Sequence record: PZ583739.1
Source of the DNA: a phage
Reading direction: 5' to 3' (one strand)
DNA length: 64,000 nucleotides
Part shown: positions 10,441-12,429 of the stretch, piece after piece
Position numbering within the stretch: the stretch's first letter is position 1
Layout of the letters: every line of letters begins with the position of its first letter
Position numbers and translations under genes: made by a program
The notes under the pieces: model-generated
What the model was told of the DNA's origin: nothing
Database searches by the model: none
What the model saw: the letters and a program-made list of their open reading frames with translations, nothing else

Positions 10441-11126
10441 TACCAGCCCTCCATAGGGAATTCCAGATATACTTGAGCATTAACGCGGATTTCATTTGTA
10501 ATCTTTTTAACACGGTCGGTATTACGAGACACACGACCAAACCAGCGCCAACCGTTACTTACTGCACGAGAACCTGTATGCCATGTCTGCCAATCAAACT
10601 GGAGCAACGTGCGGTCAGGAGCATCCCACTTGGTTAATTCATTGGACTCAATTTTTTCCAGAACTTCTTTATGCCACTGGCGATAGATAAGTTCGCCTTC
10701 AGGAATCTGACTAAATTGGGCAGTTCCGGTCGCAAAATAAGTAGGACACACATCAGCGTTAACAAGACCAAGAATATGTTCAGAATGGTAACGAGGATTA
10801 TCATAATCAGGTTGCCCTGCAGTAATAAAGTGTTGACCAACCGGAATATCCTGGCGCGGTACATCATCATGGTGATAACCTGGGATAGCAGGATACCAAC
10901 CAGGCATTAACATATGTACACGAGAATCGAATACGACATTTTCATTAGTCCAATCAATCGGAAGATTGGCAATAAAACTACGAGTGATTGGGCCGCCTTT
11001 ATCCCAAGCAAAACTCAAATCGCAGTTAAAGAACATTGGTTCATTTTTGATTTGATCGTTTTGAACATCGTGAGCAAAACCACTTACGGCACGAGCTCGG
11101 CTATTAAACACTTTAGAACTATTCAT
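10440..11126 (-). CDS. hypothetical protein (228 aa)
   Basis: ORF preceded by a conserved RBS cassette ctaatgaggaaaatattATG. Confidence 0.45.
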   Translation of the reverse strand: MNSSKVFNSRARAVSGFAHDVQNDQIKNEPMFFNCDLSFAWDKGGPITRSFIANLPIDWTNENVVFDSRVHMLMPGWYPAIPGYHHDDVPRQDIPVGQHFITAGQPDYDNPRYHSEHILGLVNADVCPTYFATGTAQFSQIPEGELIYRQWHKEVLEKIESNELTKWDAPDRTLLQFDWQTWHTGSRAVSNGWRWFGRVSRNTDRVKKITNEIRVNAQVYLEFPMEGW

Positions 11127-11185
11127 AATATTTTCCTCATTGATTGTGGGACCATTGTGTCATAGTCCCACTTGGATGTACACAC

Positions 11186-12145
11186 TTATTTTGCGAAAGG
11201 ACGAATTAAATGTTGGTTAGCTTTAAAACGTTTAACATAGTCTTCGTGCCCCAGGGTGTTGTACATATTAACCACTTCCTGGTAATGTTCCCAGGCATAC
11301 TCACGGAACCATCCAGAAGTAATGGAGGTGCAGACTTTTTCCAGCGCAATATGGAAGCTCACGGATGGAGAGATATTGAACTCATTAGGAACCTGCGAAC
11401 GCTCCAGAGCGAGCACACATGCTTCTTCATAAACCCCTGCCAGTTTAATAACATCAGGGAGTGCTTCAAATTTTTCACGCGAGGTCATGACTTCTGAATC
11501 ATCCTTCATATAGAACTTATATGCAGGCTTATCAGCAAGCGCCACGGCCTCGTGGATGGAGTCATGGTCAAGGGTATAGATTGTATCATTAAAGAAAGTT
11601 TTCTTGCCCACGTCTAGTTTAGGGTGACTGTATGACAGTGTCTCTGCCTGACGCTGCAGCATGATTTTCTGCAGTTCATCATTAAGAACAATACCCTTAT
11701 TGCGAAGGTAATTAATATGACTCATGGTCTTCAGGAAGAATGGATTGTTCTTCAGGTAACGATGAGATAATTTAATTGCCAGACAAATATCAGGAGTTGC
11801 CCAGTAAAAACCTGTAAGACGATCTTTTTTAATATGATTTTCAGCATATTTCAGGAGACGATAACTTGAGGTGAAATCTTCGTCTTGAAGCTCACCAGTA
11901 ATTTCTCGTACGTTGGTCAGGGCACGGACAATATAAGCTTCAAAATAGGTTTCTTTGCCATTGTACATACATTTAAAAGCTTGGACGTTAGGGTTATCCA
12001 CAGGAACATGAGCACCGAACATACGTGCTTTAAAGTGGTTCCAGGAGCCTTGGTCAGCGATAAAGTCCCAATCAGAGTTTTCAATTTTCTGACTTTCAAT
12101 CAGACCAGCGTTATGTAATGCACGAGAACCAATAACTAACATCAT
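11186..12145 (-). CDS. hypothetical protein, possible Pol-beta-superfamily nucleotidyltransferase fold
   Basis: N-terminal VIGSRAL...x17...SDWDF resembles the hG[GS]...DhDh NTase motif; same conserved RBS cassette. Confidence 0.4.
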   Translation of the reverse strand: MMLVIGSRALHNAGLIESQKIENSDWDFIADQGSWNHFKARMFGAHVPVDNPNVQAFKCMYNGKETYFEAYIVRALTNVREITGELQDEDFTSSYRLLKYAENHIKKDRLTGFYWATPDICLAIKLSHRYLKNNPFFLKTMSHINYLRNKGIVLNDELQKIMLQRQAETLSYSHPKLDVGKKTFFNDTIYTLDHDSIHEAVALADKPAYKFYMKDDSEVMTSREKFEALPDVIKLAGVYEEACVLALERSQVPNEFNISPSVSFHIALEKVCTSITSGWFREYAWEHYQEVVNMYNTLGHEDYVKRFKANQHLIRPFAK

Positions 12146-12158
12146 AATATTTTCCTCA

Positions 12159-12326
12159 TTAGTAAAGACGAGTTACTTCATATTTTCCAAGTGCCGATTT
12201 TTTCGCTTCAATTCGTGAGGCAGCAAGATTGGCGGCCTCTAGTGAAGAAAATTGAACCACTTGAGAAGTATTCTGTCTTACTCCACCTTGCGGGTGAGTG
12301 ACAAAAACAATAAGAACATTATACAT
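12159..12326 (-). CDS. small hypothetical protein (55 aa, hand-translated)
   Basis: Not in the ORF track (under 60 aa); third copy of the ctaatgaggaaaatattATG start cassette; MYNVLIVFVTHPQGG... Confidence 0.3.
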   Translation of the reverse strand: MYNVLIVFVTHPQGGVRQNTSQVVQFSSLEAANLAASRIEAKKSALGKYEVTRLY

Positions 12327-12429
12327 AATATTTTCCTCATTAGTTGACGAGATAATGATACTACGTTTCTTTAGGCTTGTACACTAAATTTCTGCACATA
12401 AGTCCTCCTATCACATCCTTGTGATAATT

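Follow-up and report, generated by a model that had tools for sequence, protein, structure and literature searches.

A translation-initiation cassette repeated before three unrelated early genes of a T4-type coliphage, and its relation to PeSL regulatory cassettes

Gene-module exchange by way of cassettes that carry initiation signals has already been published for T4-type phages, under the name of promoter-early stem-loop (PeSL) regulatory cassettes (Arbiol et al. 2010, PMC2839356; Comeau et al. 2014, PMC4122927). PeSLs are intergenic, lie between small non-essential ORFs of hyperplastic early regions and are repeated before unrelated small ORFs (PMC2839356, PMC4122927). Their layout comprises an upstream stop codon, sigma-70-like -35 and -10 boxes, a stem-loop of variable position that often lies over the -10 box, and a Shine-Dalgarno (SD) sequence and start codon on the 3' side (PMC2839356); the definition with SD and start codon at the 3' extremity is given in the legend of Fig. 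2 of that paper. When close relatives are compared, PeSLs are tied to indels the size of a gene; experiments have placed their crossovers in the interval from the -10 box to the SD/ATG (PMC2839356). As cited in the same paper, efficient T4 recombination uses ∼50-bp homology (Singer 1982), and deletions between short direct repeats in T4 are put down to short-homology recombination or slippage (Singer et al. 1982, Mosig et al. 1998).

A second group of described systems acts on the start region itself. RegA sites lack structure, are rich in A+U and comprise a poly(A) tract on the 5' side plus the AUG (review PMC3014915), examples being rIIB (AAAAUUAUGUAC), gene 44 (AAAUUAUGAUU) and a SELEX product (aaAAUUGUUAUGUAA); RB69 RegA protects the SD-to-AUG region and selects UAA repeats (PMC3014915). 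RegB cuts GGAG or GGAU in the start regions of early mRNAs (PMC3014915).

The window analyzed here is a stretch of 64,000 nucleotides (record PZ583739.1) from a T4-type coliphage of the genus Gaprivervirus, ∼97% identical to VR20. The initial annotation had described a 20-nt minus-strand repeat at the starts of the genes beginning at 11126, 12145 and 12326. ATGs do lie within the repeat at these three positions and each opens a long ORF on the minus strand, but the length needs correction: the 18-mer AATGAGGAAAATATTATG is exact at all three sites (12324-12341, 12143-12160 and 11124-11141; here sites A, B and C), whereas the 20-mer CTAATGAGGAAAATATTATG is exact at A and B only, site C beginning TCAATGAGG with two mismatches. 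The unaltered cassette sequence is GAGGAAAATATT. The repeat sits between e.2 and e.3, in a variable early-gene region whose gene content differs among VR20, VR7, VR25, VR26, JS98, JS10 and QL01. The features referred to below, in the order of transcription followed by two near-copies, are:

12408..12427, minus strand: small hairpin (8-bp stem) that follows the stop of the 74-aa gene upstream
12361..12399, minus strand: remnant identified by sequence comparison with JS98/VR25, a strong SD TAGGAGGACTT followed by a 12-codon mini-ORF
12355..12384, minus strand: early-promoter-like element of site A, GTGTACA, 17 nt, TATCAT, then leader TATCTCGTCAACTAA; family D4
12324..12343, minus strand: site A cassette CTAATGAGGAAAATATTATG, with GAGG Shine-Dalgarno, spacer AAAATATT and the ATG of the 55-aa ORF
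12159..12326, minus strand: 55-aa ORF, phrog_20278, no Pfam match
12143..12162, minus strand: site B cassette, a 20-mer identical to that of site A; TAA at 12161-12159 is the stop of the 55-aa ORF and the ATG starts the 319-aa ORF
11186..12145, minus strand: 319-aa ORF, phrog_2141, Pfam DUF7277 and DUF7275
11177..11183, minus strand: -35-like GTGTACA of site C, immediately after the stop codon of the 319-aa ORF
11146..11171, minus strand: 10-bp stem-loop close upstream of site C; a -10-like CACAAT falls in the loop and 3' arm
11124..11141, minus strand: site C cassette AATGAGGAAAATATTATG (18-mer), with the ATG of the 228-aa ORF
10440..11126, minus strand: 228-aa ORF, phrog_1843, no Pfam match
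102..116, minus strand: near-copy AAGGAAAATATTATG, one mismatch, at the start of the gene that is the counterpart of VR20_096
14674..14688, minus strand: near-copy GAGGAGAATATTATG, one mismatch, at the start of a 184-aa ORF; contains GGAG

A sequence of this kind could arise by chance, or as the generic ribosome-binding consensus of an AT-rich phage. GAGG followed by an A/T spacer and ATG is a common form, and the exact 18-mer also stands at gene starts in some non-T4 contigs, so convergence is possible. Against this, the repeat with at most three mismatches was observed four times where dinucleotide shuffles predict 0.01, and in VR20 the exact 12-mer from -12 to -1 precedes 4 of 160 annotated minus-strand genes where column frequencies predict 0.011. 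Relaxing the match gives the same picture, with eight VR20 minus-strand genes within one mismatch of the 12-mer (0.18 expected) and, in the window, five occurrences of the 15-mer core with at most two mismatches (0.22 expected). Outside the ATG, the general start consensus holds little information. Chance and generic consensus are refuted by the shuffles and the column-frequency simulation, and we regard either as highly improbable; the cassette belongs to a discrete, over-represented subclass of early-gene initiation regions, beyond general start-site shape. In a collection of viral contigs, the exact 18-mer precedes 21 unrelated protein clusters, nearly always at an ORF start, in contexts that include positions directly after tRNA genes and after early promoters.

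The initial annotation had called the three downstream ORFs unrelated, and had named their homology as the finding that would reduce the repeat to a simple duplication. The ORFs fall into three different PHROG families, the 319-aa protein alone has a Pfam match, and pairwise blastp among the three gave no significant match; when the three loci are aligned, identity ends right at the ATG. Homology or paralogy of the ORFs is thus refuted at the sequence level, and since they are unrelated the repeat is not a simple duplication. A segmental duplication, with the three genes as paralogues that retained their 5' ends, has in its favor nothing beyond the shared 18-20 nt and the existence of adjoining paralogue families with repeated junctions (12430-13451), and we consider it exceedingly improbable. 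Pfam and PDB sequence searches with the proteins returned nothing informative on function.

Orthologous loci in other phages reveal how strictly the cassette is kept. Across 14 loci of the 319-aa gene, which span 69-99% amino acid identity, all 12 positions from -12 to -1 are invariant, as are 80% of second and 23% of third codon positions; the flank from -40 to -15 has a majority frequency of only 0.56 and represents at least six unrelated upstream contexts. For the 228-aa gene, 9 of these 12 positions are invariant in 21 coliphage-type loci across ∼8 upstream contexts. The start regions of more remote orthologues (Aeromonas-phage type and others) are quite different, so the cassette is not obligatory for the 228-aa gene. 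We also considered concerted evolution of the copies within a genome, which finds no support in view of three genomes (L050, L051 and L053) in which the cassette of the 228-aa gene carries a 1-nt change and the copy of the 319-aa gene is intact. A gene's own cassette copy is thus carried along with it across genera and is more conserved than second codon positions. A general requirement for an A/U-rich spacer free of structure is not enough to account for invariance at 12 of 12 positions.

The initial annotation had read the identical starts as recombination junctions used to swap gene modules, to be looked for in related phages with different gene content. One comparison has the form expected of cassette recombination. 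In JS98 the order is 79-aa gene, cassette, 55-aa gene, cassette, 319-aa gene; in L045, L046 and L047 the left flank of JS98 is joined straight to the cassette and the 319-aa gene. What separates the two arrangements is exactly one unit of 181 nt, made up of the 55-aa gene and a cassette, with a 16-nt direct repeat at its boundaries. The 55-aa ORF is confined to ∼33 Gaprivervirus/Dhakavirus records. Along the 319-aa gene, JS98 and L045 stand equally far from the window, and the 55-aa gene has diverged as much (88%) as its neighboring sequence. There is thus no mosaic signal, and the idea that JS98 recently acquired the 55-aa unit from a phage of the window type was rejected.

Might recombination, then, be the primary role of the cassette, its identity being maintained by, or resulting from, repeated crossovers between its copies? 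The JS98 indel is exactly one cassette-plus-gene unit, homology breaks at the cassette 5' edge in all orthologue contexts, 21 gene clusters are fronted by the same 18-mer, and PeSL crossovers map to the corresponding interval. However, tight gene packing also forces a break at the cassette 5' edge, and only one of at least five indels examined in the region is bounded by cassettes; the endpoints lie elsewhere for the VR7/VR26 216-aa gene, the JS98 70-aa gene, the VR20_139 module and the 109/79-aa deletion scar. B-C and A-C recombinants were sought in ∼35 orthologous loci and none was found. The copies in one genome drift independently, a repeat of 18-20 nt falls well short of the homology length given for efficient T4 recombination, and the JS98 unit is not surrounded by a mosaic identity pattern. 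We therefore think it unlikely that recombination is what the cassette is for. The swapping proposal fits the one 181-nt indel; as a general account it is not supported, the identity being conserved gene by gene and not mainly a recombination scar. Translation initiation is the primary role of the cassette, and its use as a junction is occasional and secondary. Nearby, an indel at 12640/12649 (an extra 75-aa paralogue in VR20) is flanked by similar, non-identical stop-SD-ATG junctions; its flanks share no exact repeat of at least 12 nt, so it lends weak support to repeat-mediated exchange.

The three sites differ in what precedes the repeat. The promoter-like element of site A (TGTACA-17-TATCAT) agrees with the sigma-70 consensus at 9/12 positions and matches the VR20 early promoter/leader family; the small hairpin (-6.6 kcal/mol, z = -5.5) is located upstream of its -35 box. 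The remnant at 12361..12399 equals the start region of the JS98/VR25 109-aa gene joined to the last codons of the 79-aa gene, and it marks a deletion scar that the cassette did not mediate. At site C, TGTACA, 17 nt and CACAAT form a weak candidate promoter (8/12 to the sigma-70 consensus, below the promoter-scan threshold), accompanied by the stem-loop (-17.3 kcal/mol, z = -4.3), and sites A and C align in register on GTGTACA. Site B has no promoter and no stem-loop; its upstream sequence is coding, and its RNA is predicted to be unstructured, with an open centroid structure. No intrinsic or T-run terminators were found in the scanned region.

Taking this together, we conclude that the repeat is probably a constrained translation-initiation cassette, the 3' end of a PeSL-type element, owned by each gene, kept by selection and occasionally used as a recombination substrate. 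(AAU)GAGG would pair with the 3' end of 16S rRNA, and an 8-nt unstructured A/U spacer (AAAAUAUU) would place the AUG next. This subclass of start regions would make up the 3' part of the early regulatory cassettes found in the group. In order, those cassettes have a -35 GTGTACA, a -10 box, in many cases a stem-loop, the leader TATCCCATCAACTAnTGAT and GAGGA...ATG; they would themselves be PeSL-type composite cassettes of T4-type phages. Site A would then represent a complete promoter, leader and SD unit, site C a unit whose weak -10 box is overlapped by a stem-loop, and site B the SD-spacer-ATG part alone, laid over the stop codon of the 55-aa ORF, such that ribosomes finishing that ORF may be delivered onto the start of the 319-aa ORF. 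Purifying selection on translation would keep every gene's own copy. As a by-product, the identical copies form short direct repeats and would be points of occasional crossover or slippage, as perhaps in the loss of the 55-aa gene from some Dhakavirus genomes.

We speculated that the constraint could also reflect binding of a sequence-specific translational repressor of the RegA type, the cassette serving as an operator that co-regulates these genes. The spacer and start read AAAAUAUUAUG, which loosely matches the A+U-rich, unstructured, A-tract character of RegA sites; regA is found in VR20; the start of VR20 gene 44 (AATGAGGAAAATAATA|ATG; in T4, AATGAGGAAATT|ATG) has the cassette's first 13 nt; and the invariance is greater than composition alone requires. 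However, apart from gene 44, the classic RegA targets of VR20 (45, dexA, regA, rpbA and 62) lack the cassette (6-10 mismatches), and the VR20 genes that bear it are mostly promoter-proximal immediate-early genes (for example cef, srd, modA and mrh.2). As RegA sites have no strict consensus, resemblance is weak evidence; the RegA link is a matter of resemblance between sequences, and an operator function of this kind is not likely. RegB offers another potential agent of selection. No GGAG or GGAU occurs within the cassette GAGGAAAA, and the variant GAGGAGAATATT at 14674-14688 does carry GGAG. Because GAGGAA lacks the GGAG that RegB cuts, escape from RegB is a possible selective reason. RegB escape and binding of a RegA-like repressor are each one inferred possibility for the agent of selection.

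We also consider it unlikely that the bare SD-spacer-AUG 15-18-mer, with neither promoter nor stem-loop, is a functional unit by itself, a sequence-specific operator (for a RegA-like or other trans-acting factor) of a small regulon of accessory early genes in several Tevenvirinae genera and perhaps also a minimal portable linker. If so, an ORF spliced in after a tRNA gene, a promoter or another ORF would be assured of expression. The 12/12 invariance among orthologues as low as 69% identical and the 21 unrelated gene clusters are compatible with such a unit.

Under the preferred reading of a gene-owned initiation cassette, the locus is a clean and quantifiable case in which the accessory genes of T4-type phages come as plug-in units, each equipped with a standard expression signal. 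It indicates that the tail of a regulatory cassette, from SD to ATG, can be under stricter conservation than the protein whose synthesis it starts, and it records a seamless loss of one gene between two tail copies. It also adds Gaprivervirus/Dhakavirus detail to the PeSL picture and offers a candidate start region of high efficiency, free of RegB motifs.

Compared with the short-repeat deletions of T4, L045-L047 have likewise lost, relative to JS98, one repeat unit between short direct repeats. In the present case the repeat is a functional start region, so the deletion product keeps a working gene start, and the event was reconstructed from genome comparison rather than observed. With the T4 gene 44 and rIIB start regions, the cassette has in common a GAGG or AAGG SD, an A-tract, an AU-rich unstructured spacer and an AUG; it shares AATGAGGAAA and TTATG with gene 44, and a further likeness, at site B, is an upstream stop codon inside the ribosome-binding region. 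The cassette differs in a spacer 3 nt longer, and its three genes are not known RegA targets.

The closest comparison is with PeSLs. PeSL crossovers and mini-circles are known from infection, and the present sites from sequence alone. Unlike a PeSL, the repeat here is only the 3'-terminal 18 nt (SD-spacer-ATG). These 18 nt also stand alone, free of promoter and stem-loop, at site B and, in other phages, after tRNA genes; gene by gene, their conservation is stricter than that of the promoter part. In this phage group the -35 box is GTGTACA, unlike the E. coli-like -35 consensus of the RB49/phi1 PeSLs. Promoter and stem-loop are unevenly represented: site A has an early-promoter match and a small hairpin only, site C a promoter that the scan did not flag and a 10-bp stem-loop over the -10 region, and site B neither, so site B is not a full PeSL. 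Indel endpoints coincide with the A/B pair and with VR20_139, the latter at a promoter junction typical of PeSL, but not with the VR7/VR26 216-aa gene, the JS98 70-aa gene or the 109/79-aa scar. Sites A and C probably fit the PeSL layout, each closing an early-promoter/stem-loop cassette on its 3' side. Every one of the three sites finishes in GAGG-N8-ATG where an ORF begins, and the repeat lies among small ORFs of a hyperplastic region, between e.2 and e.3. Rather than a new mechanism or a new kind of element, the locus presents a real repeat that belongs to a known, reusable type of phage regulatory cassette.

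The window contains three exact minus-strand copies of AATGAGGAAAATATTATG, at 12324-12341, 12143-12160 and 11124-11141, with ATGs that begin at 12326, 12145 and 11126 (sites A, B and C, respectively). The initial annotation described a 20-nt sequence present three times; the 20-mer is exact at sites A and B, but site C differs in the first two bases. Each ATG opens a long ORF:

12159-12326, minus strand: 55-aa ORF, opened by site A
11186-12145, minus strand: 319-aa ORF, opened by site B (Pfam DUF7277 and DUF7275)
10440-11126, minus strand: 228-aa ORF, opened by site C

Allowing up to three mismatches, four matches to the repeat were found versus 0.01 expected from dinucleotide shuffles, and its 15-mer core with up to two mismatches was found five times versus 0.22 expected; the repeat is therefore real and non-random, save for the 20- versus 18-nt detail. 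It is a translation-initiation region, composed of a GAGG Shine-Dalgarno (SD) sequence, the 8-nt spacer AAAATATT and ATG. Only a few bases 5' of the 20-mer, sites A and B also have CTCGTC in common (minus strand, 12344-12349 at site A and 12165-12170 at site B), shifted relative to each other by a 2-nt indel; the site A copy is promoter leader, and the site B copy codes for the final residues of the 55-aa protein. The sequence hints that ∼29 nt of these two sites may be of common origin.

The window derives from a T4-type coliphage that shares ∼97% identity with the Gaprivervirus Escherichia phage vB_EcoM_VR20. Homologues of e.2 and e.3 flank the three genes, which are encoded on the early strand in a stretch whose gene content varies among VR20, VR7, VR25, VR26, JS98, JS10 and QL01-type genomes. 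Their products belong to three different PHROG families, pairwise blastp among them gave no significant match, and Pfam matched only the 319-aa protein; PDB sequence searches with the proteins yielded nothing useful. The PHROG, blastp and Pfam results argue against homology of the ORFs, and the proteins are unrelated, in agreement with the original description.

The repeat is more than this phage's generic ribosome-binding site. The first 100 kb of VR20 has 160 annotated minus-strand genes, and the start-region consensus drawn from all of them has low information content. The exact 12-mer from -12 to -1 is found at 4/160 genes (0.011 expected from column frequencies), and eight of the 160 have at most one mismatch (0.18 expected); about 18 genes form a tail at up to three mismatches, apart from the main mode at ∼7. 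This excess of exact and near matches argues against a merely generic site. In IMG/VR viral contigs, 37 stretches contain the 18-mer without mismatch, nearly always at an ORF start and ahead of 21 unrelated protein clusters. T4-like genomes of 160-175 kb account for many of these, with the 18-mer directly 3' of tRNA genes or early promoters; a few fall in unrelated contigs, so convergence on the sequence is possible. At eight loci from T4-like IMG/VR genomes, various tRNA genes end no more than ∼10 nt before the exact 18-mer, which begins unrelated small ORFs of 56-80 aa; the cassette thus also serves ORFs within tRNA clusters.

Conservation was examined gene by gene. At the 319-aa gene, TGAGGAAAATATT followed by ATG is present in 14/14 orthologous loci (69-99% amino-acid identity), with 12/12 positions invariant from -12 to -1; within the first 35 codons, the invariant share is 80% for second and 23% for third codon positions. 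Upstream of about -14 these loci carry unrelated sequences, in at least six contexts. For the 228-aa gene, 9/12 positions are invariant in 21 coliphage-type orthologues over ∼8 upstream contexts, and distant orthologues (Aeromonas-phage type and others) have quite different start regions. In three genomes (loci L050, L051 and L053) a single base has changed in the copy that precedes the 228-aa gene, and the copy at the 319-aa gene is intact. These drifted and intact copies speak against mutual homogenisation; given conservation per gene and independent drift, the copies are therefore not homogenised against each other. The pattern is that of purifying selection on the start region of each gene separately.

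In VR20, many genes with this class of start region follow a conserved early promoter-leader unit that reads GTGTACA, spacer, TATAAT-like -10 box, TATCCCATCAACTAnTGAT and then GAGGA...ATG. The entire promoter-leader-SD arrangement is present at site A; the elements at sites A and C are:

12384-12355, minus strand: site A promoter-like GTGTACA-17 nt-TATCAT (9/12 in the promoter scan)
12408-12427, minus strand: small hairpin ahead of the site A promoter (predicted RNA structure)
11183-11177, minus strand: site C GTGTACA, directly after the 319-aa ORF stop codon and in register with site A
11146-11171, minus strand: strong predicted 10-bp stem-loop at site C (-17.3 kcal/mol, z = -4.3)

The site C stem-loop overlies a weak -10-like CACAAT, and this promoter, at 8/12, is below what the scan flagged. 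Site B has neither promoter nor stem-loop: its cassette fills the 13 nt that separate the 55-aa ORF from the 319-aa ORF, the TAA inside it terminates the 55-aa ORF, and the RNA there is predicted to be open, a layout that suggests translational coupling of the two ORFs. The arrangement at sites A and C largely matches that of the promoter-early stem-loop (PeSL) cassettes of T4-type phages, in which experiments placed crossovers in the interval from the -10 box to the SD or ATG (PMC2839356) and which have been extended to other T4-likes (PMC4122927). The 20-mer is therefore probably the 3' tail of PeSL-type early regulatory cassettes, standing alone at site B.

The initial annotation viewed the repeats as junctions for module swapping. 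In JS98 (L048), the 79-aa gene is followed by TGAGGAAAATATTATG, the 55-aa gene, TGAGGAAAATATTATG again and the 319-aa gene; in QL01-type L045, and in L046 and L047, the same left flank runs straight into a single cassette followed by the 319-aa gene. Besides 2 nt that differ just 5' of the repeat, the two arrangements differ by exactly one 181-nt unit with a 16-nt direct repeat as its boundaries, and the flanks are 94-96% identical between JS98 and L045. The JS98 55-aa gene matches the window copy at 88%, a divergence equal to that of the adjoining 5' part of the 319-aa gene. The simplest reading is that the unit was recently lost, through what we infer was recombination or slippage between the two copies. 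Other nearby indels break elsewhere. In VR7 and VR26, the 3' end of the 319-aa gene carries an inserted 216-aa "restriction endonuclease" gene, with breaks outside the cassette:

L003 2369-3019 (VR7): 216-aa gene VR7ORF135c, corresponding to window ∼11186
L043 3463-4113 (VR26): 216-aa gene, corresponding to window ∼11186

This may be a mobile nuclease gene; it overlaps the 319-aa gene's stop codon (ATGA) and alters that protein's last residues. The 319/228 junction in JS98, L050, L051 and L053 holds different small genes, each with another start region. VR20_139 (132-aa ORF; L144 16067-16515), absent from the window at ∼15372-15384, belongs to a module with an exact internal cassette and a GGGGC…GCCCC stem-loop; its junctions lie past the upstream stop codon and, within the early promoter that follows, in the interval from the -35 box to the stem-loop/-10 box, a typical PeSL breakpoint. 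A deletion scar at 12361-12399 of the window (minus strand) joins the beginning of a 109-aa gene with the final codons of the 79-aa gene, and has left an orphan start region ahead of the site A promoter. The scar has a strong SD (TAGGAGGACTT) and then a 12-codon mini-ORF, and its start matches the JS98/VR25 109-aa gene. No B-C or A-C recombinants were seen among the orthologous 319-aa and 228-aa gene loci, and the 18-20 nt repeat is short relative to the ∼50 bp that PMC2839356 cites for efficient T4 recombination. The cassette's primary role is probably to express the downstream gene; a role as recombination junction, supported by one clean event, would be secondary.

Other repeat families, and a set of predicted membrane proteins, are present in the window:

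12659-12691, 12865-12897 and 13156-13188, minus strand: family D6, ∼33-nt junction
9853-10440, 13448-13801, 13788-14147 and 14122-14676, minus strand: predicted membrane proteins, e.2/e.3/e.4-like
15686-15818, 16200-16330, 16738-16776, 19966-19981 and 56925-56963: families D2, D7 and D8
7823-7878, 8613-8668, 20226-20281, 20540-20595 and 20839-20894: family D1, ∼56 nt
36220-36250, 56598-56628, 58300-58330 and 60019-60049: family D3 hairpins, late-gene region

The region 12430-13451 (minus strand) encodes small paralogues arranged in tandem (74, 65, 93 and 96 aa), with C-termini ending WVSSS-x-(E/M)C, and the D6 junction combines the final codons and stop of one gene with the SD of the following gene (…TGCTAAGGAA…ATG); the VR20 counterpart has one additional 75-aa paralogue with similar, not identical, flanking junctions. 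The predicted membrane proteins have a conserved FI(K/E)EC-type C-terminus, whose codons (…ATTAAGGAATGT…) also supply the SD for the gene that follows, which overlaps or abuts. D2, D7 and D8 form a second promoter-leader-SD cassette family ending in CTGGAGAATAAA and ATG, with an exact 12-mer common to four VR20 genes; the units are ∼515 nt apart and differ in number between the window and VR20. In several small genes, D1 takes in both the start region and the codons for the N-terminus (MKTYQEF…), and it probably encodes a common capsid-targeting N-terminus, because VR20 annotates these genes as internal head proteins ip5, ip6, ip7, ip9 and ip10; block 19996-20863 is replaced relative to VR20. 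The D3 hairpins are GC-rich (AAGGGACC-TTCG-GGTCCCTTT), followed by T-runs, and are probably intrinsic terminators.

The 18-mer repeat is best described as a strongly constrained translation-initiation cassette, and the VR20 genes that bear it are mostly promoter-proximal immediate-early genes. We infer two candidate targets of selection, avoidance of the RegB motif and a role as RegA operator. RegB cuts GGAG or GGAU in early start regions (PMC3014915); both are absent from the cassette sequence, and a one-mismatch variant at 14674-14688 (GAGGAGAATATT) does have the motif. RegA operators are described, in loose terms, as unstructured and rich in A+U, including a 5' A-tract and the AUG (PMC3014915), a description that the spacer fits. 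Classic RegA targets in VR20 other than gene 44 are without the cassette; the spacer closely resembles the gene 44 starts of both T4 (AATGAGGAAATT followed by ATG) and VR20 (AATGAGGAAAATAATA followed by ATG).
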